From Blasia pusilla (Eukaryota): 64,000 nucleotides of DNA. A program made the translations under genes and the position numbers. Positions 4,366-51,817 of this stretch are shown one piece after another. The DNA is taken from contig CM114271.1 of NCBI GenBank assembly GCA_050084515.1, positions 31,248,001-31,312,000 of the forward strand. The letters run 5' to 3'. The stretch's first letter is position 1. Every line of letters begins with the position of its first letter. The notes under the pieces are model-generated. The model was not told the origin of the DNA, searched no databases, and worked only from the letters and a program-made list of their open reading frames with translations.

Positions 4366-7300
4366 TATAAATGGTAAATGGTAAATAGATCAAGCCCGTG
4401 GGATCCAAAGGGTCAAAAGGCTACAAAAAACTTTACAAGTAATACATTGACTCGGAAAAAGACCCTAAAGGCCTTCCCCTAGCTAATGCCTAGAGCTTTT
4501 GAGGGATGGATAATGATATCTCTAATATAAAAACTTAAATCATAAGGCACTAGCTATAGTAAAGAATAGAAATTCTCCAAATCTATTTTATGAGCTAGTC
4601 TAATCTCTTCATATCTTGGACATGTAACAAACACATGATCTTCATCCTCAATACTTTCTCCGTCACATAACCTACAAACGCGTTCTATTCTATAAATGTT
4701 GAGCCAACCTTTTTCCTCAATTCCTAATCTATGAGACCCAATTCTATGTCGTGCGATAATATTATGTAAGAACGTGGAGATCCCCCCAAGTAGGTATCCT
4801 TATTCACAATATACAAGCATTGGATTAACATGAAGTTGATAAAACTCCATTTTTGTGTCCGAGTTGCTCCAAATGATGTTGAGAAATTGCTTTTGTAGAT
4901 GCTCGCGGAGTGCCATTGGTTTCAGGTCCCAATCTTGTTCCGCCACATTCCACTTTGAAGACCAAGTCACCACATCCGCAATCTACCCTATGGAACATGT
5001 GGCTCATAAAGCTTGATGAGGGAGACGAGAAACATCAAGAGATCTCATCCTTGCGATATAAGTGATGGTCAAGTAGAGAGCTTCAACTTCTAGAGGAACA
5101 CAATCTGATTCCACAAGAAGAATAGCATAAGAAGTTTGGTTTCTTACACCCAATTCTTCTTGTAGAAAAATCTTTTGCACCTTCTCCATGCGCTCCCTAC
5201 CTATCTTCTTACAACTAAGGCCCCAAACTTGGGTCCCAGATAAGACCAAAGGCATCAATAAGCTCCTAAATAAGAACTTCCTAAGGCCCCACGATACAAG
5301 ATGAGCTTTTCTACACCGGTCTAAAATTGAATATAGAGCTTTGTAACCAGCTTCTATTCTCTTTTGTATACAAAGTGCCCAATCATAATCATGAGAGAAA
5401 TCAATGCCTAGATATTTGTAACTCTTCACTTGTTCTAATTGTAGATCTTTGTAAAAGAATGAGAATTTGGATCTAGTGCCCACTCTAATGACTTTAGACT
5501 TCTCAAGATTAGCCTCCATCTGATTTTGGGTACAAAAACTTGCTTAAGTGTTGAGGTATTTTTGTAAACTAATGCTATCACGTGCTAGTAATATGATATC
5601 ATCTGCATACAATAACGCTTTGATGACGAAGTCTCCAAGCTTAACACCTTCACTGTCATATTCCTCCAACCACTTTTTGTTATCATCTATGAAAACTCCA
5701 AAGAGAGTAGGGGAAAAAGGGCAACCTTGAATGACTCCGATAGTACTCAAGATCTCTTAAGTTTGTGAATCTTTGATCTTGGCCCGAACGGAATGGTACA
5801 ATTTGGCCACAACAGCTAGGAAATTTTTTGGTACCCCAATGCCTTGCAACCAATCCCATAATAGCTTACGAGATAATGTATCAAAAGCTTTCTTGAAATC
5901 GATGCAACCGCAAAACAAAGCTTTCCCATTGCCCTTAGATTTCTCCCATAAAACACGTAAGGTCAAGATAGGATCGATGGTATTGTATGTTGGGCGAAAA
6001 CTAGCTTGGACTCGTGCTCTATTTTGGAAATACTTTGTCCATGCGCTCAACTTTGAATCCACCAATTTTCCCAAAAGCTTGGCAAAAACACTACCCACCA
6101 TGATAGTGCGATAGTTTATCACCAAGTCCTTCCTTCCTGATTTGTGAATAGGAATAATCTCTTGTAACGACCAAGTAGAAGGAAACCCATAAATAACAAC
6201 ATCACCCAATACTTTGGTGAGGATCGACCCGATAGAATCTCCTCCCCACTTAAAAAGTTCAAAAGAAAGACCATCCAAATCGTGCGATTGGCTAATGAAT
6301 CTTCTTAGTTGAGTCATCACCTCTGCTTTAGAAAATAAGCCTGGTATGCCTTCACAACAGGGCATAGATGTAGCATCGCGGAAGAAATAGAGCTTTGTGG
6401 CAAAAGATATCAAAGACTTAGGATTAAGAGTAGGTTTTGAAGACCATACTACCAACCATCTCCAAAATGATTTGGGTTCGTCATGCAGCTCCCTTGTTAA
6501 GGACTCTTGCTTTCGCCGCAAGAAAACTTGTTTCTTAGATTTCACAAAGTGTTTGTAAAGGCTTGTCATAATAAGCCGACTTTGGATATCCAAAGATTTG
6601 TCCACTGATCTTACCCTTGCTTGCTTGCATTCAGAGTCAAACCACTGATTACAAGGCAGCCTCCTAGCACTTCTATCCCTGTGCCAAAAAAAGAACTTGG
6701 ATGCACTATTCTTGAGCAATTCGGTTAGTTGCAAACTTGCCGTGTGTGGATCAGGGCTCCATACAATGTGAGTCAAGAGTCCTTGTAAATCTAGGATGTA
6801 AAGATCTTTTTTAACCAAGATCTAAGAAATACTTAGGAGAAGCTTAAACGGATTAACATATTTAGAGAAGAATTATCTTCGACAATTAGAGAGTAAACAA
6901 AAGAGGTGCATGATTTGATTTAGGCTAAGGCTCTAAAACTTCAAATGTAGAGACATGAGAGCTATTAGTGGGCGAGGAGAGAAGATAGTTAATGGTACTT
7001 ACAACCAGTAGAGGAGAAATATGTATTGGAGTGAGAGTTGGAAAAATTAGACGTTCCATTAAGAACTTTCAAATTACAAGTGGCTTGGAAAGACAAAAAA
7101 TTCTCTTTCAAAGGATTTGTAGAAAGATCTGAAGAGATTCTAGACCGCCAACCATCCTCAGGTTCTTCGAGAAGAGGAGAAGTCAAGGACTCATTGAATT
7201 GGGTAAATTGAGCACTATGCGTGCAAGCATTGAAATCCCCAACTAGAAAGATTTCACCTTTGCTTTGATATTTGAGAACATCCCCAATAAGTTGATGGAA

Positions 7301-8530
7301 CGGTTGACTCTGATTGCAAGTGCACGTTGAGTAGATAGGCATGGATAGTGGTCCAAAATACAAACTTCCAGATAATAATAAAATCCCCCAACCAAACCAA
7401 GACGTAGCCAATGATATTGGCCCTTGATGTCTTGATCTTCTAGATATATGAGAGGTAGAAATTGAGACCTGATGAAAATAGCAATACCCTTTGACCCTTT
7501 CGTGCTCATTGCCTTCTTTTGTTCCATGTCAATCCTACCAAAATAACCTTTGCATGTCTACAATAGTATTGCTCTCATATTCCCAAGACTCCACAATATT
7601 GATGATGTCCGCCATCTCCCAAACTAGTTGAGCACTCACACACTTTGTTCTTGAAAGGCCGTGTTTATTCCACATCAACACTCTCAGCTCCTTGGATTGC
7701 TAGGTTGATAATTCTCTCTTTCTCAGGGTAACAATTGCTCGACCATGGCGTAGAAAAGCAATAAAACCTACTTCTTGAGCCTCTTTAACCTTTGCAAGCT
7801 CCTTTCTCCTAGCTTCAATGTGTAAAGGTGTAAGGTCAAGATCCAACCATATCCTCTATCCTTTGAGAATGGCCTTGTTAGCCATGGCAGTATCACGTTA
7901 AGTTTGATCAACAAACTTAACTAGAATAGCATGAGTCTGTGTTCCCATTTTCCCAATGTGGAAAGCTTGAGCTAAGTTCAGATTGTGAACATGAAGTGTA
8001 TCAACCAAGAACTTGGTGATAGCACTCTTCATCTCTTCAATTTTTATTTTCGGAAATCTGCGATTCTCACATTCTTCATACGTGCAAATTGGTTTTCTTT
8101 TTCTATCTCTTGCTCTTGACAGAAAGAGATATTATGAGCAACCTTTGTAACTTTAGCATAAGATTTCATTTTCACTTCTAAAGTTTTAACAACCTCATGC
8201 AATCTTGAACTATTGGGAGTAGTCGCTAATGATGATGCTATCTCTTGAACATCCGCAACAGATTTGGAAAGATCCAATATCACACCAGAGCTATCTTTCA
8301 ACACCTTCTTCAAAACCTCTTGCGTTGTCTTCAACTCTCTAATTTGAATATGAGCAAGGTTCAATTGAGAAGTTTGTACCTTAAATTCTTGTCGAAGCTC
8401 TTCACTTCATGCAAGACCACTTATACTAGATTCAAGATTTACTATTGAGTAATCATCATGAAGTGGACTTCACTACATCCAAAAAATCGCACGACCTCCA
8501 ATCAAGTAGAGACACTTGAACACCACACAA
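4366..8530 (-). mobile_element. Near full-length decayed LINE, RTE-X-like (ORF1 plus APE-RT ORF2)
   Basis: Coiled-coil ORF1 piece at 8044-8364; APE motif FLVGDFN; RT motifs IDFKKAFD, GVIQGCPFSP, LLYADD; 3' tail of short TTTACCA repeats near 4370; a closely related copy lies at 52175-54697. Clade is inferred from the domain layout and tail. Confidence 0.85.
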
Positions 8531-13796: not shown

Positions 13797-14249
13797 CAAG
13801 GTTGCACAAAAACGGACGTGTCCATCCATGGGACGGACATGCTCGGACTGCACCCGAGCCCGCCCCAAGCGAGGCGGGCTAGGCGGCTCAAGGCTGATTA
13901 GACGCGGGCTAGGGTGGGCTCAAGGCTGATTGGGCACGGGCTCTAAACGGGCACGTGCGGGCTCCAAGCGGGCAAGTGCGGGCTCAGAGCTCATAAAATT
14001 TTGGTCTTGTGGACCAAATTTTGCGGGCCTTGAGCCCGCATGCGGACTTAGGGAGGGCCTCCAACCCGCACCTAGGGCCCGCGCTGAGCCCGCCCTAGGC
14101 GAGGCTGCGGGCCACGTAGCGGGTGTGGGTTGCGGGCAGGCTCGGGTGCGGGCCCCGTGCCCGGGTACCCACGCCTGCACGGATATGTTCGTCAATAGGA
14201 CGAACATGGACGTGTCCGTGGACACGGACTTTGTCCGTGTGCAACCTTG
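13797..14249. mobile_element. Non-autonomous hAT-type MITE
   Basis: 11-bp perfect TIR CAAGGTTGCAC/GTGCAACCTTG; perfect 8-bp TSD GGAGATTG (13789-13796, 14250-14257); internal GCGGGCT repeats. Confidence 0.9.
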
Positions 14250-15431
14250 GGAGATTGGTCAAGGCATCCTACGGAGACAATACGCACTTGGGGAGGCTCC
14301 AATCGATTATCATTTGGCGCCTTCTTGGCTATCTAGGGAATGCACAACCGGTTAATCAAGTCTTGGGACTCAATCTAAGTCTTCCGCTTGCAAAGCTCAA
14401 GGTTGAGAGTGCTTCCGGGTGAAGCTAGGTGAAATATAGGACGGACTCTACGATGTGTAGATATAAAGAGACCTTATCATTTTTGGACTTTGGTTTGGAC
14501 TTCCATTTTTCATGGAGATAAGATACATTTTCAAGTCTGGTATTAAATAATATAAATTCTAAAATGCTAAAATAATAATGCCCTACTGATTGCTAAATCT
14601 TTTCACACTCGAGCTTAACTACGTGAATGAGAATTTGGAAATTAAATAAATAGAGTTTCAAACAAAATTTTGAGACTAGTAAAATAAGATAAAAATATTA
14701 ATTATTCATAATAATAAAATTATCCATATCAACTTAACAACTTATGTCTCCTTAAGATATGGGGGAAAATAAATTTAATAAATATTTATTCCTTAAGTAT
14801 AAATAAATAAAAGGACTACATATATTTATTAAATAAATAAATTTAAATATGAAATGATAACCTTATACCTTACTCAAAACATATCTTTGATTTCATTTCC
14901 TTGAATTTGACTGATTTGGGCGTCGGCTGATTTTTTATATTATTGGATTTGGATTGAAAAAATTCCATTAAAGATAGTTTTCTATCTTTTCTTATTCAAG
15001 AAGATGATTTTGAGATAAAAAATCAATCAAAACTATGTAACCTTCCTACATTTTTCACCATATAGGACCATCTAAGAAAAAATTGAATTGCAAAATTCTT
15101 AACCATGGTGAAAATGATAGAAAAAATCACATTCAAAATAATAAGAAATCAGGTAATACTTCAAAAGCCTTCATCACAAAAGTTAGAGGGTGCTAATTTT
15201 AATTAAATTTCCACACAAAATCTAATAGTGCCAACTTTCATATTAATTTGATATCAAATTAATCATTTTGGATATTAATTTTTTATATCAATCAACTTTC
15301 AATGCAAATTTTAAGCACACAATTTTCTATGAAAAAATATTTAAAAAGTTAATGTGTGAGACCCATATTATATTCTAATTGATATCAAAATGACATAGCT
15401 CTAAGGTTTGTAATGTTCAAGGATAGAACCT

Positions 15432-15950
15432 TGTCATGTCTTTTAGGATAGATCGGTGAGATCTAGTAGAGCGTTTTTGTGAGTAGTGGAGGACAGGCTC
15501 AGTAGTTAGAGGATGACCTGCCAAGGCCCCGTGAAATTTGCGAGAGCAGGTTTCCCCTTCGTTTCGGCTCATTTGGAGCCTTATCGAGGAACTTACTATT
15601 TTAAGTAAGTACCATTTTGAGTATATGATCGACTTTCTATTTTTGTTAAGTGGCCCTTGACCTCCTACATGAGGTCAAGAGCCAAGGAGGTGACTTGGGA
15701 GCATAGGTTACCATGGAGAGAGAGCTTAGAAGAGGAAACGGTATACCTCAAGGAGAGAGAGCTTGAGAGCTAATTCTCTCTTTGTTGAACCTCTTGGTAT
15801 GAGGCGGCGGAGCTTTGGTCTTGCTTGTCTTATATGTGTAACCCAAGCCTCTCATTAGGAGAGTGGGTTTGGTTTCACATTGAGAGAGACATGTGAGAGT
15901 GCACACATGTGAGAACTATGGTGTTGTGAGAGAGATTGGATCTTATTTTA
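15432..15950 (+). repeat. Split direct repeat A1
   Basis: Colinear with 25041-25560 (roughly 90% by eye). Similarity stops abruptly after GGATCTTATTTTA. Confidence 0.93.
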
Positions 15951-17656
15951 CAAATAGAGAATGAGTGAGTGAGAGAGCTTCAAGGGGAGCTCATTGGTCA
16001 CTCGTTGGTTTGGCAGGTTGGGGATTGTATTCCCCCTTTAGCAGTTCATGGGAGTGCTCACTGGAGCAAGAGCCACTTACATGTGATGTTCCCTTTGCCG
16101 ATTTTTCGTGTGGAAGAGTGGCGTGCGGAAGCGCTGCCCAATTTTTTATAGGGATTGAGTATGGGAGCGGGTTGCCTCATGCCAGTGATCTTGGGAGCAC
16201 CATGTAGCTTGCTGATTTGTGATCTTACATGTTTTACATTTTCGTTGGGAGAAATCAGCGCGGAAGCGCAGCCAAATTTTGTGTAGGAGAAAGAGACATT
16301 GGGCTTTACAATAGTCCCCGTCAATTTTTACGAGAATGTCTGATTCCAAATATTTTTTGATGTTGTTCTAGATCGTGAAGCTGTATATGTTGTGCAACAA
16401 ATGGTGCGCAATTTGGAATTGCAAGCAAAAAGTTATGGTCAATCTTGCAAAACTAAACTGCCATTGCTAGGCAAGTTTCAGGGTTAAATTATTCAAACCC
16501 TGAACGAGTCGCCGCGCCGGCGGCGGCCATCGCCGTCATAGTCACCGTCAACGGTCGACTATCACCATCAATGGTCAACCGTCAAAGGTCCACTGTTGGC
16601 CGCCGCTGCCGCCTAGCGTTGCTCAGAGCCGCGTTCGTCTGTTGTCCACCCTTTGGTTGCCATTGCCGCCATTACGGAGTGGAGGGTCTTCCATGACCAC
16701 CGTTGATTCTCTGACTTACGCCGCCACCACGTACTTTGGTTTGGCCGCCACCGTCATCATAGTTTTGTCATCAACCAGTGATGGCAGGTGACCATGGGTT
16801 ATGGTGTTTGAGTTTTCATTTGATGTTGCTATGTTGGGATTGGTAGCCGCTCGACGATGATAAAGTACCGTGTCGTGACGCCCGTAGCCGCAATGCGTTG
16901 CCAATTGCCGCGTTGTGCCGCATGTGGCTACACCGCACCATCTTGATCGTGGAGCCGCTCCTTCACTAAGGTGCAGAGCATGTGAATTGCTGATTGAGGA
17001 GGGTATGTCGCTGAGTGCCGTGCCGTTTGTAGCCGTTCCATGCCGTCAGTGCCGCACGAGACCGCTGGACCTGCACCGCACATCGAGGAGGTTTGAGCAA
17101 CATCAGTATGAGAGGAGTAAGACTTGCTGATTGGAGGAGTTGTCTTCATGACTTAGTTGGGGACAAGATTTGCAGTTGCCGAGGAGCGATATCGACATTA
17201 TTGTCAGGTTACCCATTCTGGTCTCTTACCCTACACGTGTGAGGGATTTCCGGATATTGGGAAGTTACTTGGGATATTGGGTTCGTGCTGATGCTAGTAG
17301 CATCGATGATGTATGGGTTTAGGGGACATAGATGTGTGTGGGTTGTCCACAGTTGAGGATGGTTTGTCGATGAGACAATAGATGGGTTGATTTGCCACAC
17401 CATGCTGCTTGTTGCCGCACAACATACGTCTCAGTGAGAAAGTGTAGATTGAGTGCCGCATGTTTAGTTTGAGTGATTGAGGGATTACTCACGAGATTGA
17501 GAGTGATCATGTGAGAGGGGCACGAGGGCCATCACGGCGTCCTTTCGGGATTTTGAGAGGCGACGTAGTGGACCTAAGAGTAGCTCTAGAGGGTTTACCC
17601 GGAGTGGTGCGAGGTTTTGAGGGTCTCCACGTGAGAGACCACCTTGATCTCCTTCT

Positions 17657-18800
17657 GTGTCGTCTTTAGACAAGGGGGAGTATATAGAGGAGTCTGTTAG
17701 TGATCCACCATACACATTGAATGGTCCTACTAGTTGGGCGTACGAGATGGACGACCAGGGTAGAGGACCGCGTAGGTTTTCGGGTGCTGTAGGCACTATA
17801 GAGCTACAGGACTTCATTGCAGAGTTTAGGAGTTGGTGTGACTCACTACGGGCTAGGAACTCTAGAGAGTTCAACCCGTTTACAACATAGAACCGTATGT
17901 TCTAGCATTTAGAGGGGGCGCCCATGGACGATTACCATGAGTTCTCCCACAGATATGCCCAAGAGATTGAGGCATGGCGACTCTACTATGACCCACACTA
18001 TGTGTCATGGACGGAGCCATTGATAGATAAGGAGGAGGAGTCAGGAGAGACTACTTCCTCTTCCACTAGTGATGTTTTAGGAGGGGTCACTCGCATTGGA
18101 GTAGTTGCACCATCTAGTCGGGTTCGTCCCAGGTTCAACCTCGTGGTTGAGTTCTTTGTTGGGTTGAGGGCAAGCTACCAGGGGGTACGGATGGAGAAGT
18201 TGCGGAGCATCCACGACTTCCAAAGGCACCCGGGTAAGAGTTTGCGTAAGGCTTACACTTCCTTGCGCCGGTTGATCAATGTCACTCAGGGATGACGGAA
18301 GCTCAGGCTATCTAGTCATGGTATGCGATGTTGGACCGGACCCTGCGGACATGGGTGCGGGAGGGGTGCTTCTTATGAACACCTCCCTACTTTGAGAGAT
18401 GTTTTTAGGACCGCCAAGAACATTGAGCGCAACATGGCTGAGGAGAGCGTATCCACCATGGGTTCTAGGCGAGAGCATTCACAATTATCTATACCACATG
18501 TGCAACAACGTGGACTCCGAGATAGGTCGATTGTGGCACCACAAGCTCAAGGAGGATACCCAAGACCACATAGACCTGTACCTTCATATGCGGCTTAGCA
18601 GCAACCGCCTACTATTACTTGTTGCTCATGTGGTGGAGCCCATCATCAAAGCGATTGCATTCGTCAGGGTCATGGACGTGTTCCTCAACATGGAGAAGGA
18701 GATGGTGCTGCACCATAAGGTTATCAGTGTGACTATTGTCAGAGGTATGGTGATACAGCGCCAGGTGTTTCAGTTTACATCCTGAGTTATGTCTAGATCG
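17657..18800 (+). pseudogene. gag-like region with zinc knuckles
   Basis: Broken ORFs (IELQDFIAEFRSWCD..., LRSIHDFQRHPGKSLRKAY), followed by CSCGGAHHQSDC (~18620-18660) and a degenerate CDYCQRYG knuckle. Confidence 0.7.
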
Positions 18801-19679
18801 AGGGCTAGAGAAGGCACCAGAGTGAGTAGCCGGTCCAGGTGGGGCTAGAGGTTGTGCACCAAGTGGTCTCGTTGGGGGACGAGGAGCTAGAGTTTCCCGA
18901 CAGGGTGGTGGAGCTGCCCATGGAGGAGGTAGAGTCTCACCACTTAGACGCGTCAAGGGAGACGCCGGGCATGAGGCTGGGATGGCTGCTCTAATAGAGC
19001 AGCTACAGGAGCAGATTGCCGCTATGGCATTGAGGTTACCCGATGCCGGATCTGTGGCATCGACATCATATGGAGTAGCCAGAGACATGGAGGATCCTGG
19101 TTGGATGAGTGGGATTGCCCAAATGGAGGCCTCTGTAGTTGTGATGCGTGGAGCAGCCGCAGAGTGGGATCCACAACGAGGGAAAGCCAGGAAACAGACT
19201 AGGCTTCCTCAATCTTTCACATTTTCTGAGGCAATGAGGAACCCATCGATGGGTCCTAATCAGAGTTCTTGGAGAGTTGGTGATGTTATTGGTGTGCAGG
19301 CATGGAGGATGATGGGAGAAGCAAGTGCGACGACTCCTATTGCTGATGCTAAGGAGGGGCATGTGTCGAGCACGTTGTTGGGGGCGGCCACCGTTGTGTA
19401 TCGTGCTCCTTTACTTTCTGTTTCTGATGTTATGACGTTGGGAGTTACGCCCGCCAAGATTTTTTTGCTGGCCGCTACGCTATGTGAGCGTGGAGTTGAA
19501 ATTCTTGCATCACGTTCAGAGGTGATTACAGAGGAGGTGATTGACCTGCCCTTGGAGCGGATGCTTGGGCCGTCCACGTCAGATTCATGGCAGGCTGCGG
19601 CTGCTAGGATGGCGGAGATGCCCGCTAGACTCGTGATAGAGCATGCCAAAGTTTCTCCTGGTGTTGTATTGTTGGATAA

Positions 19680-20010
19680 CGAGGGAGAGTTCTTTGAGTT
19701 GGTGAGTCCTGGAGGTAGAGCTTTTAGTCCACAGCACGTCTTGTTGGATTCAAGAGCGCAACCCTTGATGTTGGGAAAAGTGTCATTCAGAGGATTGGGC
19801 TTGACGAGAGCTGATGTGGAGCGATGTCTATTCCAGATATAGACATCCTTGGGTGGAGGGAGCGTTTATCACCCGACAAGAGGTCGAGGTGAGGATTCGC
19901 CCCAGACATCCTACAGACAAGTCCGTGGTGCGAGCCAAGGCGATAGTGACTGATGTAGAGTCCTACGACGTCTTGGTTGGTGGAGCAGTGTTATACCTAA
20001 TGGGGTTTTT
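19680..20010 (+). pseudogene. Retroviral-type aspartic protease domain
   Basis: VLLDSRAQPLM (DSGA motif with a G-to-R change) at ~19740-19770, and C-terminal YDVLVG after a frameshift. Confidence 0.75.
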
Positions 20011-20449
20011 CCCTGGATTAATGGGAGAACTTAGCGTCCTACAGAACAGGATGGTAGTCAAGAGAGGGGCGCCTTAGCTCATTACCCATTCGATTCACAG
20101 GTGCAATGATCAAGCAACGACTAGGAGAGATGGCGAACTTAGCAGCATTTAGTAGTGCCATCATTTGGCCTAGTGATTTGATTGAGGGACATGTCCATAT
20201 AGAGGATACTCCCGTTCTTGACATTTCTATGGAGAGGAGTGTCATGGTAGCCCCATCAGTTCGTGGAGGAGAGGTGCCCCTCTGGGGCTTGACTGAGGAG
20301 CTTCGACGCTTAGCCATTGAGCATGTGCAGACCGCGTGGAGCAAGGCATTTGCACTAGAGTGTGATGGATCACAGGAACCCCATGTAGGCAACAGTGCTG
20401 CTATGACCCCTTTGGACACCACCCTGATTGTATGGTGCATCCCAGAGAA

Positions 20450-21416
20450 GGGTATTTGGATGTTGGATCTCTTTGGAGGGATCAACATTGGGTTAGCTTT
20501 TATTTTGCACGCTGGAGTGCGCGTGCAACAGTACCTGTATGTGGAGATTGATGATGTTACAAGGTGCGCTTCACTTCATCATGTGGCGCTGTGAAGCCTC
20601 CATTTTCCCGACTTCTTGTCTGCGTCCGACATTCAGTATTACCATAGTTCCCTACTGAGGGGCATTTCATTGTTGGGGGCGCAGGACTTGGAGCGGGTAG
20701 GGACCATAGACTTGGTCATTGCTGGTTGGCCGTGTCAGGGCCAATCGAGTGCTGGACGAGGTAGCGGGTTAGTTGACACTCGGTTCACGTTGTTTTGGGA
20801 GATGATGCGGATCTTGCAACATTTACAGGAGCATCAGCCTCGTTCTCCAACATATATTTTGGAGAATGTGCCAATTTTGGGCAATTCAAGGTCCCGCGTG
20901 GTGACAAGTGCACATTAGGTGCGCGCATGGATCGGCGTGGAATTATTGTTAGATGCGGTGAGTGTGGGTTCATGAACACATCGCTTGCATCTTTGATGGA
21001 CCAACTTGGTACCACACGAGGTGTTACGGAGGGCATTTGCGAGAGTGGAGCGCCCCTCTGATTTGTTGGTGGATTCTATATTGGATCCAGGCCGTTGATC
21101 ACAGGCAATGAGGCTAGATGATCGACCGTCGTTGACTATGGTCAACATGATTGGTAGGCCACATGCCGCCTTTCCCACATTGGTGAGTTTTCCCGCTTCC
21201 TATGCATTCAAGGAGGCCGAACCTGGCTTGGTTTGGGATGACCAAGTATAGAGGTTGGTGGAGCCCAACGCCGATGAGCGAGAGAGAGCGATGGGATTCC
21301 CCACAGGAGTGACGGCAGTACCATCACTATCAGAGGCATCACGACGTCATGTCATGGGTCAGGCGATGGACCTGAACTGCTTGACATGGATTTTCAGCTT
21401 AGGAGTAGCTGAGTAG
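20450..21416 (+). pseudogene. DNMT3-like C5 cytosine methyltransferase domain within pol
   Basis: One frame, no frameshift. Motif I LDLFGGI (20463); II YVEID; IV IAGWPCQ (Cys at 20733); VI ILENV (20862); VIII DAVSVGS*THRLHL*WTNL; IX-X ERERAMGFPTGVT...RRHVMGQAMDL. Same frame as the start of RT (21708). Confidence 0.93.
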
Positions 21417-21707
21417 CATCATTTGTTGATGCGATAGATCACAATTGTTGCGTTGGTGAGCCCCATGCCTACCGAGACGGTTGAGGCAGCGGCTGGGGGC
21501 GAGACCCGAGGAGATCGACACACCAGGGGTGATCGGGAGAGACACCCTTGGACTTCTTGGGATGTTTTGCACGTACGCCAAGAGATGATAGCCACATCAT
21601 GGAGTGTGGTTCCAAGTACTGCACATGGAGATGAGAGTTCTATTGTCTGAGACGGGATTGCACCATAGCAACCACCGACACTCGCGCCGGAGAGTCCTAT
21701 CGTAGTC

Positions 21708-23110
21708 ATGATGGAGACTTGGGAGCCAAATATGGGCCCTAAGTTGACAAGAAGAGAGCGGCGTCATATACACCAATTCCTTAGGAGTTATAGGAGTTGT
21801 TTTGCATTTAGTATGCATGATTTGGGTACGCTAAAGGGTCTAGGGATCCCCATTGAGTTTTCGAGTGGCACGCCGATCTTCCGACAACCCTACAAGTACA
21901 GTGACATGGAGAGGGCTCTGATTCAAAGTAGGAACCAAGACTAGCAGAGATGTTGCATGGAGAGTATGCATCTCCCATTTTCATGCCCGCCAAGAAGGAC
22001 ATGCATGGCAACTGGATGGATAGGCGAATGTGTGGAGATTACCGACCTATCAATCGGCAGATGAAGTCTGATAGGTATGCCATGCCCACCCCTAAGGAGA
22101 TCTTTGATACAATTGGGCATGCAAAGGTCTTCAGTTCATTGGATTTGCGAGGTGGATATCATCAACTGCCTATCAAATTGGAGGACAGGCAGAAGACGGC
22201 ATTTTGGGGCATCGATCCTCACGGGAAGGATTGTTTGTACCAGTGGCGGTTCTTACCATTTGGGTTAAAGAACCCCTTGGCTAAGTTTCAAAGGGTCATG
22301 GATAAGATCTTGGCAGGTCTAGATTTTGCTAAGCGTTATATTGATGACATCGTAGTCTTTAGCGCCACGTTTGAGGAGCATGAGCGACATCTAGAGGAGG
22401 TGTTTCGATGATTGCAGTTACATGGGCTGAAGCTACATCTAGGCAAGTGCAAGTTCTTCTACGATCAGATTGAGTACTTGGGTCATACGATATATCGTGG
22501 AGGCCTTGGTATGCAACAGAAAAAGGTAGAGGCTATTTCACGTATTCCACGCCCTATAGATGTGAGTCGAGTTCGTGCATTCATGGGATTGGCGAACTTC
22601 TATCGAAGGTACGTCAAGGATTTCAGTTCGGTTGCGAAACCGCTAACCTTGATGACCAAGTTGGATCAGGAGTGGCACTAGGGGCATGAGAAATAGAGAG
22701 CATTTTAGATGCTCAAGGACAGATTGATGTCCGCGCCCATATTGAGGAGACCGATCAAGGGGCTTTGAGCCGTGCTCACCCAGCATGACGATGATGGTAG
22801 AGAGTTCGTGGTGGCTTATGCTAGTCACTTGAACAACGCTGGAGAGGCAAAGTATAGCTCGTATGAGGGTGAGTGCTTGGCTACAATGTGGGTTGTCGCA
22901 CATTTCAGATATTATCTATTCGGCACTTCCTTTACCATCGTTACTGATCATCAGCCACTTAAGTGGTTGATGGAGTCCGACACGCTTACATGGAAGCTTG
23001 CAAGGTGGGCTCTTTTATTGCAGGAGTATGACTTCCAGGTGGTACATAGACCTGGGATGCTCAACCAAGATGCAGATGGTTTGAGCCATAACCCATGCCC
23101 GAGTCAGCGA
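21708..23110 (+). pseudogene. Reverse transcriptase and RNase H (Ty3/Gypsy type)
   Basis: RMCGDYRPIN, SSLDLRGGYHQ, FLPFGLKN, YIDDIVVFS; RNase H VVAYAS...YSSYEGECLA...TIVTDHQPLKWL...ADGLS. Confidence 0.95.
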
Positions 23111-23459
23111 GATGCGATTGGAGCTCGTTGGCATGGTGAGAGTGATGAGGAGAAGGTGCCAGGATGGCACGCATCAGCCTATTTGGGCTTGTTGGCTATG
23201 GAGAGCCAGATTATTGAGACTTCGATGGTGAGGTCTGATGGACAGTCCTTAGACCCAGAGGCCGGTGAGGAGACGACAGGTGGCCGAGACATTCATGACA
23301 ATGGAGTGGTCTTGGAGTACCTGCGTATCGGCAGCGTCGCGAGCACATTGGGTGCTAGAGAGCGGGATCGGATCCTACAACGCACCAGACGGTTCCGGTG
23401 GGAGGGCACACATGTGTTGCGAGTGTGGGAGGATGGTAGAGTGCGTGTAGTGCCTCATC

Positions 23460-24540
23460 CTTCGCAGAGAGCACGTTTGGTGTGTCATGCCCACGAGGAG
23501 TTGGGTCATTCTAGAGTAAAGCGGACATACATCTTGCTCTAGATTCAGTATTGGTGGCGAGGCATACAGACTAACGTTCAGCAGTTTGTTGCCAGATGCA
23601 TGGTGTGTGATCGAGTCCAAGCATCGTTCAATGCTCCAACTCCACAGTTGCATCCACTTCCAATGATGGGTTTAGGTTATAGATGGAGTTTGGATTTTGC
23701 AGGACCTTTGCCTTTCACAGAGCGCCATAGTCGTTATGTGTTGGTGATGGTCGAGCAGTTCTCCAAGTGGATAGAGTTGGTTGCATTTCCTGACAAAGCA
23801 AGTGAGGGAGTAGCGTATGCCTTCCTAGATGGAGTGTTGAGTCATTATGATGCACCAGCTGAGGTGTTGACAGACCAGGTTACAGAGTTCTGTGGGGAGT
23901 TTCAATCCTTGTGTGATCAGGCACTAATCGACCACCACACTAGTTTGCAAGATCATCCTAAGGCGGACGGACTAGCGGAGGGAGTTGTGCAGACGGTGAA
24001 GAGAGGACTACGCAAGTATGGATTGCAGAGAGGTCACCTAGGAGATTGGGACCTTCAGTTTTCGTGGTTGGCGATGGGATACAGATTCAGCAGGTAGGCA
24101 TCCTTAGCGTCTTTCTCACCGTACTTGTTGCTTTATGGCCGAGAGCCAGATTTACCTGTGGCCATTTGTCGAGATGTTGGTGAGGTGTTGAACCTTGATG
24201 ACCCTGATGTATGGATGCGAGCATGTTCTCAGAGGGCTGAGTTGTTTCGGAGAGTGATGGCCATGGCATTTGAGAACTTGGCGAGTGGGCAACATCGGGA
24301 TAAGTTGAAGTATGCGACTATTCGCAGAGGTGGTTATCGACCTACTATCCGGAGGTTTCATCAAGGAGACTATGTCTACTTGCAGCAGACGGCACCCACG
24401 ACATTGGATGTGACTGCAGGGCGCACCATCTTGAGAGTGCGTGAGGTTTTGCCATCCAATGTTCTCTAATTGGAGAGACGCGATGGTATGATTTGGAAGG
24501 ACCATGTGCTTAATTGTGCGCCATGTCATCTTCCGAACAT
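23460..24540 (+). pseudogene. DDE integrase
   Basis: HHCC finger (AHEELGH...CMVC); core RWSLDFAGP...VLTDQVTEF...ADGLAEGVVQTVK. Confidence 0.93.
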
Positions 24541-24589
24541 TGATGGTATAGTTGATCCGAGCTTAGCAATAGTTCCTACAGGCTTGTAG

Positions 24590-24730
24590 TGTATGTTGTG
24601 TGGTTCCGCCCGTGGTGCAGCCATTATGCTAGTCTGTGATGAATGTCCGAGAGGATAGCATATGGCATGTTTGACACCACCTCTCACTAGGGTTCCTGAG
24701 GGACGATGGATGTGTCCCAGATGTGCATAG
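24590..24730 (+). pseudogene. PHD finger at the integrase C-terminus
   Basis: CMLCGSARGAAIMLVCDECPRG*HMACLTPPLTRVPEGRWMCPRCA* fits the canonical C4HC3 pattern; a homologous finger is in the second copy at ~58460-58603. Confidence 0.9.
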
Positions 24731-24911
24731 AGTAGGTAGTTCTACATTCCGACTTGTGTCTGTGACATGGATGATAAGAAGGCGACCAACGATGGGGCCA
24801 CATGAGCACCCGGCCTTCTTGCTCTTAGCGTCCGAGAGATGTATGTCATGGTAGGTAGGGATAGATAGCTATCTGGAGTTAGAGGGACCTAACCACCAAC
24901 TAGCGAGGCAA

Positions 24912-25038
24912 TTGGAGATATTTTGGTACTTCTTGTCTCGTTGTTTGGATGCCATGAGTTAGCATGGGATCGTGCGTGTTTGTGTGTGTGTTCGGTGACA
25001 GCGATATATGTTGTGTAGCGATGTGTATGCGCACTACA
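24912..25038 (+). repeat. Split direct repeat B1
   Basis: 127 bp colinear with the terminal 25561-25687; ends in ...GCACTACA, 2 nt (GT) before A2. Confidence 0.93.
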
Positions 25039-25040
25039 GT

Positions 25041-25560
25041 TGTCACGTCTTTTAGAATAGATCGGTGAGATCTAGTAGAGCGCCTTCATGAGTAGTGGAG
25101 GACGAGCTTAGTAGGTCAAGGACGACCTGTTGAGGCCCCGGGAAACCTGATAGAGCAGGTTTTCCCTTCGTTTCGGCTCATTTGGAGCCTTATCGAGGAA
25201 CTTACTATTTTAGGTAAGTACCATTTTGAGTATATGATTAACTTTATATTTTTGGTAAGTGACCCTTGACCTCCTACATTAGGTCAAGAGCCACGGAGAT
25301 GACTTGGGAACATAGGTTACCATGGAGAGAGAGCTTGGAAGAGGGGAGGGATATACCTCAAAGAGAGAGAGCTCGAGAGCTCATTCTCTATTTGTTGAAC
25401 CTCTTGGCATTAGGCGGCGGAGCTAAGGTCTTGCTTGCCTTGTGTGTGTAACCCAAGCCTCTCATTAGGAGAGTGGGTTTGGTTTGACATTGAGATAGAT
25501 ATGTGAGAGTGCACACATGTGAGAACTATGGTGTTGTGAGAGAGATTGGATCTTATTTTA
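25041..25560 (+). repeat. Split direct repeat A2
   Basis: Starts TGTCACGTCTTTTAG; copy of 15432-15950. Confidence 0.93.
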
Positions 25561-25687
25561 TTGGAGATGTTTTGGTACTTCTTGTCTTGTTGTTTGGATG
25601 CCATGAGTTAGCATGGGATCGTGCTTGTTTGTGTGTGTGTTGGATGACAACGATATATATTGTGTAGCGATGTGTATGCGCATGACA
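25561..25687 (+). repeat. Split direct repeat B2 (right terminus)
   Basis: Copy of 24912-25038, ending in CATGACA and followed by the TSD ACCT. Confidence 0.93.
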
Positions 25688-27285
25688 ACCTTTTTCCTTT
25701 CCCTCTGGACTTGATATTGAATCCAGATTTCTTCCTTAAAGATCAATCAAAAGTTTCACAATCTTCTAACTTTAGGCTAATATCATAATAAGATGGAATG
25801 ATAGGTTTAAGAGGACCCATTGCCCCTTTGTCCACTGCTGTATATTCCCTAGTATAAACTCTTTGAATAAAAGTAGCTTCTATTCGATTCAATGATTACA
25901 AAGTAATTTCTAAAATAGTGTCATGTATAGTTGACTATCCTTCTAATCTACTTGCCCTAGTCGTGTTCTCCTCCATCCAATCATGTGCTTTGTCTTGAGT
26001 ATATTGCTCCTCTTTGGTCAAATTCATAAGATGATCATCTTCATATACTTCCTTCCCCCATGTACTTCACCTACTCCCTTGAACGCTGGTTATGTGTGTC
26101 GTGGAAGCTTGTGTTCAACAGATCACGCTCTCCTTACTAATCAACACCAAAACATACTCACATTAGCCAAGGTTTGGGTGAACCAACCTTGTGTCTCTCA
26201 AGTCTTGGTGTGCATCCATCCTTCAAGTTCAACCAATCTATGGGGTTAGAACCGTTACATACCAACCTAATCCTTTCTTCCCAACACAATAAAGTTCTTC
26301 AAGACTTGGGACAAACTTCATTGATAAATTAGGAACCTGAAATGATGCTAGCGTGCCTAGCATCTTCACAACCCAATGGATGTCAAATGATTCTCTAACC
26401 ATGACTCAATATTTGAGTAACGCGTCAAGGTCTAAGGGTGGTTTCCATAACTGCTTCATCTAGACTTGGCATAGTGTCAAAATCCTTATGCCAAGCTCTC
26501 AATGTGTTTCGTGCCCTCAGTTCATCCCTATGCTTCCCAAGGTGGGGATCATGTTCCAAACACCCTTGGAGACCCTCTCCCTTATATATTGTTCTAGAGA
26601 TTCTCATTCCCTACCTAGCTATATCTAGGGAATATCTTGGGTTGTTCCTTTTGGCCCTCAACCCAACTATCATTTCAATAATTTGGGGATGGTTTTTAGA
26701 TCTCTCTTATAGAATTTCTTTGGAGTTTTAGTATATTGGAATTGGCTTCTCACAAGCTTTCAAACGCCACATTATTCATACCAAACACATCTTTGGATCT
26801 TGCCGTTATGACATCAAACATGAAGAACCCTAAATGGTCAATCAAGTTACAAGTTAGGTTGAAGTCCCCCTTGGTGCCCAACTCTTGTAGGACTTGAGCT
26901 CTTCCCAAGTCGTGTTTGGCCTTTGGTCTTGCTTTGCTAGGTCAAAATCCCTATTATCTAAGATGCCCATCAAGGCTCGTGTCTTGCATTCGCAACTCAT
27001 GTCTCACTTGTGAGATTCTGACACACTTCCAGATATCCTAGTGTAAGCCCACTAGGGTTCTAATATTCTGCATTGGCTCTCATTTAGTTATGAGGGTTGG
27101 GATTCCCAATCTATCCCTATCATTACTATCATGTTGAGACAGCTATGCCTCTCGATTCTTGATTTGAACTTCCAAATAATCACATCAAAATCTTTGGATG
27201 GAGGAGGCTCATCATCTTCAAAATCACTATTTATCCTCCTTCCTTCATTTTCAATCCACGTATCAGTCAAGGTCTTCAATTGCAA

Positions 27286-30769: not shown

Positions 30770-31838
30770 ACAAAGGCAGGCTCGGGTGCGGGCCGGTCTA
30801 GGCGGCGGGCTCAAACCTTTGCCGTCAACCGCCTAGACCGGGGCTAACAGAGCCCGCACCCATTGCGTGGCTGCAGAGCGGGCTCAAGGTGGACAGGCGC
30901 GGGCTCAGGGCGAGCACGCGTGGGCTCTGGTGTGATTGGGCGCGGGCTTGAGGCGGGCAGGTGTGGGCTCGAGGTAGGCAAGCGCAGGCTTGGGATGGGC
31001 AAGTGCGGGCTCCGAGCGCGCAAGCGCGGGCTCCACGCAGGTAGGTGCGGGCTCTTGGCGGGCAGGTGCGGGCTCAAGGGTGATTGGGCGCGGGCTAGGG
31101 CGGGCAGACGCGGACTCTCCACGGGCAGGCGTGGGCTAGGACGGGCAAGTGCGGGCTCTAGGTGGGCAAGCACGAGCTGAGAGCTGATTGGGCGCGGGTA
31201 GGTGCAAGCTCTGGGCATGTAGGTGCGGGCTCAAGGCGGGCAGGCACAGGCTCGAGGTGGGCAGGTGCGGGCTCCGGGAGAGCATGTGCGGGCGTGGGGT
31301 GGGCAAGTGCTGGCTAGGGTGAGCAAGTGTGGGCTCAAGGTTGATTGGGCGCGAGCAAGCGCGGGCTCCGGACGGGCAGGCGTGGGCTAGGGCGGACAAG
31401 TGCGGGCTCATTGTTGATAGGGCGTGGGCAGGCACGGGCTTCGGGCGGGCAGGTGCGGGCTCAAGGCAGGCAAGCGCGGGGTAGGGCGGACAGGTGCGGG
31501 CTCAAGGCGGATAGGCACGGGCTCAAAGCTGATTGGGCGCGGGCTAGGGCGGGCAGGTGCGGGCTCAAAGCGGGCAGAACATGGGCTCAGGGCTCGCAAA
31601 AATTTGTTCCGCAAGACCAAAAATGGCCGTTGGACCAAATACTTGTCCGCCGGATCAAAGTTTGCGGGCCATGAGCCCGCCCAGGTCGGGCTATGGGCCA
31701 CGCAATGGGTACGGGTTGCGGGCGGGCTTGGGTGCGGGCTTAGATGCGGGCTGGGGTGTGAGCCCCGGGTACTCGGGCCCACACGGTCATGTCTTTCCAT
31801 AAGACAGACATAAGTCTGCAAACGCAGATGCAACCTTG
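30770..31838. mobile_element. GC-rich tandem-repeat arm of the hAT-type MITE family
   Basis: Dozens of degenerate ~20-21 bp units like GCGGGCTCAAGGCGGGCAGGT, ending at the family TIR ATGCAACCTTG (31838). Confidence 0.7.
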
Positions 31839-32439
31839 CTATATCCTAATCCATTGGTCAAGATTCCAATTTTTTTCTAATTTTATCATGATGTGGTATT
31901 TTGTGTCAACTCATCCCTCTTTCATTTGCACGGGCAGTTGGACGCTCTCCACAACTTGCTTTAAGAATTTTACAAGTTTTTTTGGATTATATATATAGCA
32001 CCTTTGGGATTTTCCTCTAGATAATTCCTCCACAAATTGTTAACGGTTGCTCTAGGTTTCTTATCACCTAGATCATAGGAGACTTCATAGTGCAATCAAT
32101 GAGGTTCTGATGTTGGGGCAAGTTTTTATGCTATTGACGGACAGTGAATGGATTTGCCAAATTTCCATATGAGAGGTCTTTTTGAGGTTGGTTAGTTGCT
32201 CTATTGCAATTTTCAACATTGTGACCATCCCTACATAGTGAACACTCTTAAGATGCAAGTGTTGAGCACTCTTGAAGAGGAAATCTAGAAGCTCGAGTGG
32301 GTTGAAGCTATGTATGAAGAGCTCACAACCTTGGAGATGCACCAAAATTGGGAATTGGATGATTTTCCATATTGTAAGAAGGAAATTGGATGTAGATGGA
32401 CAATTCAGATAGTAGCTTTTGTAGATATGAGCCCATATT

Positions 32440-46283: not shown

Positions 46284-46963
46284 GCAACCCGTCGGCATCG
46301 GACGGGTTGCACGCTTCTGCTAAAAATTGTCGAAGCGAGCAACCCGTTGCTCTCCGACGAGTTGCTCGGATACCTATCCTTCTTGCCCGAAGATGCCGGA
46401 GGCGTGCAAACCATCTGTTCCCGACGAGTTCCGCGGGTGCCTCGCCTTTTAGCCCAAAGACGGCGAGGCGTGCAACCCGTCGCCCTCCAACGGGTTGCGC
46501 AAGGGCCTCGCCTTGTGGTGCAGCCAGCCAGACTCCGACAACTTGCATGGGAAGCCCTCGTTCCTAACCCTTGATAAGGGAAGCGTGCAACCCAACGGTC
46601 TCCGACAGATTGCCCAAGATACGTCTCGTTCCCGTCCCAAACACGGTGGAGGCGCGCAACATGTCGGGCTCCGACGGGTTGCGCGGGTTGTTCGCGTTGT
46701 TTTCCGAAGACGACGGAGGCGCTCAACCCGTCGGTCTCCGACGGGTTGCTCGCGCACGTGGCGACGTATCCAAGATGGCGGAGGCGCGCAACATGTCGGT
46801 CTCCGACGGGTTGCGCGGGAACCTCGCGTTCTTTTCCGAAGATGACGACGTACCCAAGATGGCGGAGGCGCGCAACATGTCGGTCTCCGACGGATTGCTC
46901 GCGCACGTGGCGACGGACACAGGATGGCGGAGTCGCGCAACCTGTCGGACTCCGACGGGTTGC
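46284..46963. repeat. Array of 11 palindromic 27-bp units (consensus GCAACCCGTCGG-TCT-CCGACGGGTTGC)
   Basis: Units start at 46284, 46339, 46406, 46472, 46520, 46587, 46656, 46723, 46788, 46872 and 46937; typical period 65-69 bp. Confidence 0.9.
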
Positions 46964-47052
46964 CATTTTTCACGTCCAGACTTCTGTAACATCCGGCACG
47001 TCGCCGTCGAAAGGACGACGGGACCCAACGGTCAGCCCAACCGCTAGAAAAG

Positions 47053-47060
47053 TATAAATA
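47053..47060 (+). promoter_or_regulatory. TATA box
   Basis: TATAAATA between the palindrome array and the downstream ORF. Confidence 0.5.
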
Positions 47061-47092
47061 GGGCAGAAATCGCTCATTTCCGGTTTCTCATT

Positions 47093-47839
47093 TTGCGATC
47101 TTCATTCCTCACTCCTCACTCTCCCGCGCAGCAGCTGATCAGATACGAAGGGGCATTTCATGTTAAGGACTCCTTGTGCATGTCTCTGGAGGAAGTCTTC
47201 GGAAGTTCAACAAGCAGTTACAATGGAAAACCTCTGTCCAATTTCATTGGAGCGTTCATCACATGGCCTCGTAATGGAGTTACAATAACTAATACATATG
47301 GTGGACGTGAGGATGTGGAAGGAGGGCCTTATTGCCCCACACAGTATTCAAAGAAAGTTTTCTTAAAAGATTCGAAGGGATCAGAGCTTCATATTAGTTC
47401 ACCGCGTGTTGCCGAAAGCTTCGATTCATATGAGATCCAACCTATGTCCTTCTTTGACGACCAACGACAACCGTGGGTGTGCATAATAGTTGATGAGTCA
47501 TACTACGAACCAGCTACCCACCCGGGTGGAAGAAGGCTACAAGATATGCTGGGAATGTTTGCAAAATATCCTAGATATTTGATTACAAAAAAATACAATG
47601 ATACCATGGATATTAGGAAGAGGAAGCATTCAGCCTGCAATACCTCCACCGACATACAAGTTACGGTCCCCATGATTGGTTGTATGGAATCAGTCTTTTT
47701 ACCGATGCAACTTACAAAGAACGATGGATGTCTAAATATCGGACATGAATTGTTCACTACATTCTATATCATAGTAAATCCCAAAACCTATTGGATTAGA
47801 AACTTGAACAGATCATTTATTTTAAACCCTAAATCCTAA
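47093..47839 (+). CDS. Uncharacterised ORF, possibly a transposon accessory protein (first ATG at 47180, 219 aa)
   Basis: Uninterrupted 248-codon frame. LSNFIGAFITWP resembles the (D)AIGxxIxWP motif of CACTA TnpA-associated proteins (weak). Confidence 0.45.
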   Translation: MRSSFLTPHSPAQQLIRYEGAFHVKDSLCMSLEEVFGSSTSSYNGKPLSNFIGAFITWPRNGVTITNTYGGREDVEGGPYCPTQYSKKVFLKDSKGSELHISSPRVAESFDSYEIQPMSFFDDQRQPWVCIIVDESYYEPATHPGGRRLQDMLGMFAKYPRYLITKKYNDTMDIRKRKHSACNTSTDIQVTVPMIGCMESVFLPMQLTKNDGCLNIGHELFTTFYIIVNPKTYWIRNLNRSFILNPKS

Positions 47840-48450
47840 ACTCTTCAAACCGTAAGCCCTAAGGGATTAATAAGCCTCAAGCCTAAAACCTAAAAACTAA
47901 GCCCTAGCCAAAAGAACGTAAACCTTTGTTGAAGCGTAGACACTAAACCCTAAAACCTAAGCCATAAACCATGAATCCTAGGCCATAAACCCTAAACCCT
48001 AATCCAAAAGCCCTAAACCCTAATCCCTAAACCTTAAACCCTAAGCCAAAACCCTTAAACCCTTAGAAAAAAACCCTAAACCCTAAGCCAAACACCCTAA
48101 ATCCTAAAACCTAAGTCAAAAACCCTAAGCCCTAAGCCATAAACCCTAAACCCTAAGCCATAAATCCTAAACCCTAAGCCATGAACCCGAAACCCTACAC
48201 CCTAAGCCAAAAACTCTAAAACCTTAGCCATAAACCCTAAACCCTAGGCCATAAACCCAAAACCCTTAGCCAAAAACGCTAAACTCTAAGCCATAAACCC
48301 TAAGCCCTAAGCCCTAAGTGAATACTAACTTAAAGAAATATAGAGAAATGTTATTAATCTAAACCCTCAACCCTCCACCCTAAGACATAAACCTTACACC
48401 CGAAGCGATAAACCTTAAATCTTAACCCGTAAACCCTAAATCCTAAACTA
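47824..48450 (+). repeat. Degenerate interstitial telomere-like tract
   Basis: Dense AAACCCT / AAGCCCT / AAGCCAT variants of the plant telomere repeat CCCTAAA. Confidence 0.9.

Positions 48451-51711: not shown

Positions 51712-51817
<106 letters not shown>

Follow-up and report, generated by a model that had tools for sequence, protein, structure and literature searches.

A decayed retroelement with a DNMT3-type methyltransferase

The stretch of Blasia pusilla DNA analysed here (64,000 nucleotides of contig CM114271.1, assembly GCA_050084515.1; called the window) contains, at 15431-25682, a retroelement that carries a cytosine methyltransferase domain between its protease and its reverse transcriptase (RT). 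We refer to this element as copy 1; coordinates are window positions on the + strand unless stated otherwise. From left to right, copy 1 consists of a terminal repeat (A1), Gag, protease, a linker, the methyltransferase (DNMT), a conserved UAG, RT, RNase H, a DDE integrase, a PHD finger and the repeats B1, A2 and B2. A DNMT3-type domain in frame within a Gypsy-type polyprotein of protease, RT, RNase H and DDE integrase is the arrangement by which a Gypsy-DNMT3 element is recognized here, and copy 1 has it. Copy 1 is very probably an old, inactivated Ty3/Gypsy-type element of the streptophyte 'Gypsy-DNMT3' kind in a liverwort-like genome. The kind of element is known, and copy 1 is a land-plant member of it, not a new system.

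The methyltransferase domain occupies 20448-21383. In the C5 cytosine methyltransferases, motif I is FxGxG, motif IV is the PC with the catalytic cysteine and motif VI is ENV. Named in this way, the domain contains motif I (LFGGINIGLA, 20469-20498), motif II (YVEID, 20538-20552), motif IV (GWPCQGQS, 20724-20747), motif VI (ILENVP, 20856-20873), motif VIII (20952-21008), motif IX (ERERAMGFP, 21276-21302) and motif X (MGQAMDLN, 21354-21377). The linear order of C5 methyltransferase motifs that the original prediction had read at this place is therefore present from I to X. With stops written as X, 20400-21416 (+) translates into a single frame of 339 residues, which was used as the query. The Pfam profile DNA_methylase (PF00145), proposed with the prediction as a check on it and run with X at the stops, matches at 46.6 bits (cut-off 22; E 4.2e-12). 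A search of 1.84 billion representative proteins returned 3005 matches at E<=1e-3, of which 195 reach E<=1e-30, and the best (6.8e-81) covers query residues 2-334 in a single stretch. Judged by these scores, the similarity is far beyond chance.

The reading frame is interrupted by seven in-frame stops, TGA at 20592, 20973, 20994 and 21096 and TAG at 20916, 21249 and 21414. No frameshift was found inside the domain, so that its disruption is, as predicted, by point stops. Copy 1 also encodes H at the position of the second motif VIII arginine, where the relatives described below have R. Both motif VIII arginines together with an open frame, which we take as the mark of a working enzyme, are found in intact relatives and not in copy 1. 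Copy 1 is a pseudogene, and the enzyme cannot be produced from it. Pfam scans identified no PWWP or ADD regulatory domain at the copy-1 DNMT, upstream of which lie the protease and a linker without a Pfam match, and no introns were seen there.

The type of methyltransferase

Sequence and profile comparisons with structures were made against solved structures. With phmmer, the top match of the copy-1 domain is DNMT3A (E 1.5e-9), aligned in a single stretch over query residues 17-328. DRM2 aligns to query residues 17-142 only, and with its own C-terminal part, as expected of a circularly permuted enzyme. The domain had been described as DNMT3-like and not of the permuted DRM order, and both parts of that description hold. 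A profile built from 18 intact relatives, copy 1 excluded, gives the same ranking: it matches DNMT3A at 3e-22, DNMT3B at 2.4e-21 and DNMT3C at 8.7e-21, and the DRM enzymes at 7.9e-13 to 3.8e-10 over their permuted part only (motifs I-IV). DNMT2 follows at 3.9e-7 and the bacterial M.HaeIII and M.HhaI at about 1e-6; DNMT1 was not found among the solved structures at <=1e-3.

The fold of the domain was modelled with AlphaFold for one relative, protein P0161 (pLDDT 73, pTM 0.80), with low confidence in the motif VIII-IX region. In a Foldseek search with this model, all 35 matches listed among ranks 1-50 are DNMT3A, DNMT3B or DNMT3C (E about 1e-16), and the target-normalised TM scores of these matches are mostly 0.73-0.79 on catalytic-domain chains.

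The catalytic domains of animal DNMT3A, DNMT3B and DNMT3C are thus the best matches in sequence and fold, and they share the motif order I-X and a short target-recognition region with the copy-1 family. Unlike the animal enzymes, to which identity is about 20-24%, the copy-1 family lacks PWWP and ADD, lies inside a Gag-protease polyprotein and has a longer VIII-IX region, which is where the model is of low confidence. Plant DRM2 and tobacco DRM are distant DNMT3 kin in the same hosts; they are circularly permuted, whereas the copy-1 family is not.

Architecture and repeats of copy 1

The left terminal repeat A1 (15431-15950) is 90.2% identical to A2 over 521 columns. It is followed by a degenerate Gag-like region (17648-18295), which tblastn aligns at 40-48% identity with the stretch upstream of the protease in related loci such as L002, L011 and L024. 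An aspartic-protease-like region is spread over two frames (19501-19842 and 19805-20077), as indicated by homology to the protease stretch of relatives and by the motifs LLDSRA (19741-19758) and YDVLVGG (19964-19984). Pfam matched neither the Gag piece nor the two protease pieces of copy 1; in the first open reading frame (ORF) of the related locus L032, the protease stretch matches Asp_protease_2 at E 2e-4 and 22.4 bits, under the 24.3-bit cut-off. The protease region of copy 1 contains two frame changes, and a further change occurs just before the RT: the RT frame differs from the DNMT frame, which implies one frameshift near 21932-21944.

Downstream of the methyltransferase lie the RT (22025-22492, with YIDD at 22337-22348; RVT_1 E 3.6e-29) and RNase H (22688-23029; RT_RNaseH E 3.3e-28). 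With protease-like motifs on one side and the RT on the other, the predicted position of the methyltransferase between protease and RT is confirmed. The integrase (23546-23944) comprises a zinc-binding part and a DDE core, of which the core matches rve (E 3.1e-11) and the zinc-binding part gives an Integrase_H2C2 match under the cut-off (E 4.4e-4, 20.8 bits; cut-off 25.5 bits). A PHD finger with one internal stop follows the integrase (24590-24724; PF00628 E 4e-11). The same C-terminal PHD finger is encoded in the second ORF of L032 (L032:5086-8226, residues 990-1034) and in the proteins P0011 and P0019. Chromoviruses, which are Gypsy elements, have a chromodomain after the integrase; the copy-1 family has at that place a PHD finger, likewise a module that reads chromatin.

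The right end of copy 1 consists of an internal repeat B1 (24911-25033, 94.3% identical to B2), repeat A2 (25040-25560), which starts 6 nt past the end of B1, and the right terminal repeat B2 (25560-25682). A1 and A2 are direct repeats; the element begins TTGTCA and ends GCGCA, and the B repeats depart from plain long terminal repeats (LTRs). The A..B-A-B pattern recurs in L026, L028, L047 and L065 and is partly visible in L012 and L002. In the passages of de Mendoza et al. 2018 (PMC5890265) that bear on it, the order 'A-coding region-B-A-B' is described as typical of DIRS elements, and KnitGypsy-Dnmt3 of the alga Klebsormidium nitens is described as combining a DIRS repeat structure with Gypsy domains. 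The repeats of copy 1 match this unusual description, which ties copy 1 to a known kind of element.

A family of related elements in bryophytes and algae

A second, more decayed copy is present in the window (copy 2, 54749-58709; 69.6-75% identity to copy 1 by blastn). It consists of protease, linker and DNMT motifs I-II, a deletion, and then RT, RNase H, integrase and PHD finger. The earlier remark that a second copy retains motif I is right as far as it goes, since motif I (55541-55570) and the motif II region are kept; motifs IV-X are lost. Positions 55657-55721 correspond to 20584-21948 of copy 1, so that about 1.36 kb is gone, comprising motifs IV-X and the start of the RT. The PHD match of copy 2 is weak (E 7e-5), and its upstream part (51384-51553) is split off by a 3.2-kb insertion with the RT of a long interspersed nuclear element (LINE). 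Because copy 2 keeps motifs I-II, the DNMT domain predates the split of the two copies. Copy 2 is uninformative on function.

A scan of metagenome contigs for relatives yielded 80 related loci (given L-numbers), 35 of which are at least 8 kb long. The order protease-DNMT-RT on one strand is found in 15 of these 35 loci, usually with Gag before it and RNase H and integrase after it. L032 is essentially intact and encodes a 1369-residue Gag-protease-DNMT frame, one stop and a 1047-residue frame with RT, RNase H, integrase and PHD finger. Most other loci resemble copy 1 in having point stops and few insertions or deletions.

Close relatives are likewise numerous among proteins, with 45-67% identity to the copy-1 domain. 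Named ones come from Calypogeia fissa, Marchantia polymorpha, Marchantia paleacea, Riccia sorocarpa and three Sphagnum species, and algal ones from Spirogloea muscicola and several Closterium strains. Gene models of Marchantia polymorpha make up 12 of the 39 long proteins found (47-58% identity; e.g. Mp_4g09160 and Mp_8g17980). Dozens of entries from Marchantia, Calypogeia, Riccia and Sphagnum that public databases list as 'hypothetical proteins', without recognising them for what they are, belong to the same family by sequence. In a cluster search with P0161, the first match is a 57-member eukaryotic, mostly Streptophyta, DNA_methylase cluster, and the next two are viral DNA_methylase clusters. 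Across many loci and gene models the methyltransferase keeps its place in the gene order, as a constant component of the family.

The original prediction held that transposon-borne methyltransferases might here be extended to a land-plant genome. Copy 1 is indeed a land-plant member, while its occurrence is not special to the Blasia genome, dozens of bryophyte relatives being present in public databases. That the host is a land plant, as had been supposed, is very probable, and it would be of the liverwort kind. Among named proteins, those most similar to an intact 354-residue LINE ORF in the window (5760-6821, - strand) come from Marchantia polymorpha (72%, 63% and 78% identity), with Riccia next (38-40%), and these relatives together with the position of copy 1 in the DNMT trees point to a liverwort-like host.

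The DNMT trees were computed from transposon-borne domains only and are unrooted. FastTree was run on 137 rows, which were left after 175 full-length domains had been clustered at 75% identity, and a quick IQ-TREE search on 44 of these rows. Copy 1 falls into a 14-row set with Marchantia and Calypogeia proteins, L001 and L002 in the FastTree result (support 99), and into the corresponding 12-row set with Marchantia and Calypogeia in the IQ-TREE result (SH-aLRT 99). A second architecture, RT-RNase H-DNMT-integrase-PHD, occurs in Scenedesmus 'pol' proteins such as P0017 and in many metagenome sequences; further examples are the loci L053, L054 and L058 and the proteins P0011, P0019 and P0020, with a 3329-residue open frame in L054. 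All of its 15 rows lie on one side of a branch with SH-aLRT 91 in IQ-TREE, and all of its 66 rows lie within a 96-row set without any protease-DNMT row in FastTree. The C-terminal PHD finger is common to both architectures. As the trees are unrooted, they do not show which events came first.

Substitution ratios were compared among relatives, as had been proposed for the copies. The intact copies L031 and L032 differ with pN 0.033 and pS 0.217 (ratio 0.13), and dN/dS is 0.16 both for L001-L002 and for L001-L003, pairs in which dS is near saturation. An alignment of 16 sequences shows little or no variation in motifs IV, VI, VIII, IX and X, with copy 1 departing at the one motif VIII arginine. 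Between lineages, synonymous change in the domain greatly exceeds non-synonymous change, and the domain is under purifying selection.

One database entry of this family carries a bacterial name. P0176, labelled as coming from a Candidatus Obscuribacterales metagenome-assembled genome, is nearly identical to the Gag-protease-DNMT frame of L032, and its contig is probably eukaryotic and misbinned into a bacterial genome.

A conserved stop between the two frames

An in-frame stop separates the Gag-protease-DNMT frame from the RT-RNase H-integrase frame. In copy 1 it reads TAG CAA CCA (21666-21674); it is separate from the seven inactivating stops and lies beyond the span of the original prediction. 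The stretch from motif X to the RT was compared in the nine sequences that are readable here, copy 1 and 8 related loci, with L009, L011, L025 and L041 left out. Each of the nine has a stop in frame at one and the same position, and the next two codons encode Gln-Pro or Gln-Leu: TAG CAA CCA in copy 1 and L001, TAG CAG TTA in L032, TAG CAA CCC in L012, L029, L030 and L047, and TAA CAA CCC in L002 and L013. In the part of PMC5382211 that deals with it, UAG-CARYYA is given as the type I readthrough signal of plant viruses, a pattern to which the copy-1 stop conforms. Predicted proteins also end at the conserved stop, among them P0277, P0278, P0282 and P0284 of Marchantia, P0274 of Calypogeia and the metagenome proteins P0291, P0297, P0299, P0300 and P0304. 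The Marchantia gene models P0279 and P0280 join the methyltransferase to the RT and leave out the stretch in which the conserved stop lies, apparently by way of an intron that the gene predictor introduced to bypass it.

Transcription and decay

Reads were mapped on copy 1 at 88% likeness, with the element divided into 30 bins. In three RNA runs labelled with the same species, 3904, 4290 and 4018 reads mapped to the element; they covered all 30 bins, with a depth of about 7-27 in the DNMT bins. The first mate lies on the minus strand about ten to one, as expected for sense transcripts in the usual stranded libraries. Among the 40 best-supported read differences listed, none falls at a stop position of copy 1. 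On 15400-25700, some RNA reads have joints that go back, from 25162 to 15589 (24 reads in run X21, with GAA between) and from 24853 to 15740; rearranged copies could account for such joints, as could tandem or circular forms or the mapping of reads from one A repeat to the other.

A DNA run gave a very high summed depth over the whole element. Compared with its reads, copy 1 has A where others have G at 249 places and T where others have C at 214, and the reverse at 70 and 58; in total, A or T stands in copy 1 against G or C elsewhere at 463 places, and the opposite holds at 128. This A/T excess is a mark of C-to-T decay in copy 1. The observed/expected ratio of CpG is 0.68 in the copy-1 element, 0.42 in copy 2, 0.28 in L001 and 0.55 in L032, with TpG and CpA in excess. 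The CpG depletion fits a long history of CpG methylation.

Proposed mechanism and alternative explanations

In live members of the family, the first frame would probably yield a Gag-protease-DNMT protein, to which readthrough of the UAG would add RT, RNase H, integrase and the PHD finger. Output of the enzyme would then be comparable to that of Gag, and the enzyme would enter the particle within the precursor and be released by the protease. By analogy with DNMT3, it may well methylate DNA cytosines with S-adenosylmethionine (SAM). More tentatively, its substrate might be the new cDNA or the fresh insertion of the element, and the PHD finger of the integrase might select or label the insertion site by reading histone H3 tails. 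The idea that the enzyme is packaged and acts on the cDNA of its own element, which the original prediction took up, comes from de Mendoza et al. 2018 (PMC5890265).

It is also conceivable, but in our view rather unlikely, that the domain is kept for another job, such as acting in trans on host chromatin or other transposons, methylating RNA, or serving as a non-catalytic SAM- or DNA-binding module. Gag-side translation would yield more molecules per particle than an enzyme needs. According to the relevant passages of PMC5890265, the algal homologue gave no DNA methylation in yeast, and RNA methylation and host-side benefits are listed by the authors as options; the same passages report that human DNMT3B failed in that yeast assay as well. 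In intact members, there is little or no variation in the catalytic motifs, including the PC cysteine, ENV and RxR, and both fold and best matches are those of the DNA enzymes DNMT3A/B/C, with DNMT2 15 orders of magnitude behind, which speaks for a DNA cytosine methyltransferase.

The chance that the domain is a host DNMT3 gene or pseudogene that merely adjoins an unrelated retrotransposon, or was captured once by it as a neutral accident, is practically negligible, even though the region is full of nested transposons and copy 1 is broken. The same order and frame recur in the 15 long loci and in Marchantia gene models, copy 2 (70-75% identical) keeps motifs I-II at the same place, the ratios between lineages indicate purifying selection, and neither PWWP/ADD nor introns were seen. 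The original prediction had named a neutral one-off capture as the outcome that would overturn it; recurrent order, copy 2 and purifying selection refute such a capture in practice. It is very unlikely, too, that the bryophyte family has been domesticated, the Marchantia and Calypogeia proteins being host genes and copy 1 a dead paralogue. The Marchantia models do have gene identifiers that refer to chromosomes, and one model appears in UniRef as DNA (cytosine-5-)-methyltransferase; there are nevertheless many copies per genome (12 models in one search), the proteins end at the conserved stop of the element or, in some models, run into RT and RNase H, the summed DNA depth over the element is very high and copy 1 has terminal repeats. 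The repeats raise one more alternative, a DIRS-like element with a tyrosine recombinase in place of a Gypsy element. A1..B1-A2-B2 in copy 1, with its counterparts in L026, L028, L047 and L065, is the pattern given as typical of DIRS in the passages of PMC5890265 cited above. A DDE integrase (rve E 3.1e-11) follows the RNase H, however, albeit with its H2C2 part under the Pfam cut-off; RT and RNase H match the Gypsy-type Pfam models RT_RNaseH and RT_RNaseH_2, and a tyrosine recombinase was matched in none of the scanned pieces, which makes a DIRS identity extremely unlikely.

Several observations weigh against the reading of copy 1 as one member of a transcribed, selected Gypsy-DNMT3 family that makes a DNA methyltransferase. 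The label DNMT3 is drawn from comparison with animal enzymes of solved structure and from a motif order that is not permuted. An uninterrupted domain is found in only 8 of the 80 metagenome loci, dS is close to saturated in the L001 pairs as said, and the very close pair L002-L003 has a dN/dS of 0.84, a ratio expected from decay after insertion. Only 7, 12 and 13 RNA reads per run are at least 99% like copy 1, so that the RNA comes from relatives and is not ascribed to copy 1. In the decayed copy 1, no primer-binding site, polypurine tract or target-site duplication was recognised, and no repeats were found in 9 of the 15 loci compared, including the long L024, L048, L052 and L064. Of the nine sequences, three have the exact CARYYA after the conserved stop and six have CAACCC, two of these after TAA. 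Klebsormidium did not appear among the 30 relative clusters looked up by name, and kinship with KnitGypsy-Dnmt3 is suggested by architecture and repeat pattern, as given in the published description. For KnitGypsy-Dnmt3 itself, the passages of PMC5890265 on the yeast assay report no detectable methylation, a result that the authors call inconclusive because human DNMT3B failed too.

Comparison with known elements and implications

As described in the passages of PMC5890265 on KnitGypsy-Dnmt3, that element resembles copy 1 in its non-permuted Dnmt3-type domain within an LTR Gypsy polyprotein, in the lack of introns and in its repeats (A, coding region, B-A-B). There, key residues are kept and Ka/Ks is <0.2, compared with 0.13-0.16 in the relatives studied here. 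The host is a charophyte alga in the case of KnitGypsy-Dnmt3 and a land plant (liverwort-like) in that of copy 1. The PHD finger and the conserved leaky stop of the copy-1 family go unmentioned in those passages. SymbioDIRS-Dnmt3 of dinoflagellates, treated in the same paper, is likewise a retroelement-borne Dnmt3 with A..B-A-B repeats; unlike copy 1, it is built on a DIRS backbone with a tyrosine recombinase, and in the authors' view it represents a separate acquisition (PMC5890265, passages on this element). The same passages report de novo CG methylation in yeast for SymbioDIRS-Dnmt3. The green-algal elements of the second architecture (Scenedesmus sp. P0017; L053, L054 and L058) share the Gypsy-type enzymes, the C-terminal PHD finger and 33-38% identity in the DNMT; they differ in having the methyltransferase between RNase H and integrase. 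Later papers speak of 'streptophytes (Gypsy-DNMT3)' and cite only the 2018 work. Outside subscription journals and supplements, our literature search found no description of land-plant members, of the PHD finger, of the conserved stop or of the second architecture, and no mention of any of the six Marchantia gene identifiers that were looked up; PMC9033089 and PMC11982613 contained nothing on the subject.

Plants silence transposons chiefly through cytosine methylation, so that a transposon which encodes a de novo methyltransferase presents a paradox. As a joint reading, which we put forward as a possibility on the unlikely side, bryophytes including Marchantia polymorpha might carry a transcribed and perhaps mobile Gypsy lineage that has its own DNMT3-type enzyme on the Gag-protease side of a leaky UAG, a histone-reading PHD finger on the integrase and DIRS-like A..B-A-B repeats despite a DDE integrase, and whose DNMT and PHD modules recur in a green-algal lineage of another domain order. 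If true, this would be a self-methylating land-plant retroelement with an unusual replication cycle, and the function of a transposon-borne DNMT would become genetically testable. Marchantia is a haploid, transformable plant; as the family is widespread in liverworts and peat mosses, is under purifying selection and has transcribed relatives, the question could be studied there. The conserved leaky-type stop and the PHD finger of the integrase are two concrete, testable parts of the mechanism. A practical consequence concerns annotation: dozens of bryophyte gene models called 'hypothetical' or 'DNA methyltransferase' are ORFs of transposons, to be kept out of any count of host DNMT3 genes.

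Other features of the window

Pfam scans of 10 ORFs outside copy 1 identified two LINE reverse transcriptases and one sub-threshold DUF1664 match, and neither Rfam families nor tRNAs were found in the window. The LINE-type retrotransposon copies lie at 5000-7530 (-) and 52145-54575 (+), the second of them inserted in copy 2. Inverted fragments of the A and B repeats bracket this insertion (51560-52175 and 54701-54746, both -), which points to a third member of the family that is nested or rearranged. Tandem repeats occur at 47898-48345 and 46704-46963, with periods of 21 and 14 nt and units of 65-84 nt, and a 263-residue ORF without a Pfam match (47048-47836) adjoins these arrays. Two GC-rich low-complexity stretches (13920-14355 and 30847-31845) are open in several frames on both strands, with repeated, mutually related peptides (ARARLEP, SPHLPA), and probably represent a simple-repeat-bearing element.

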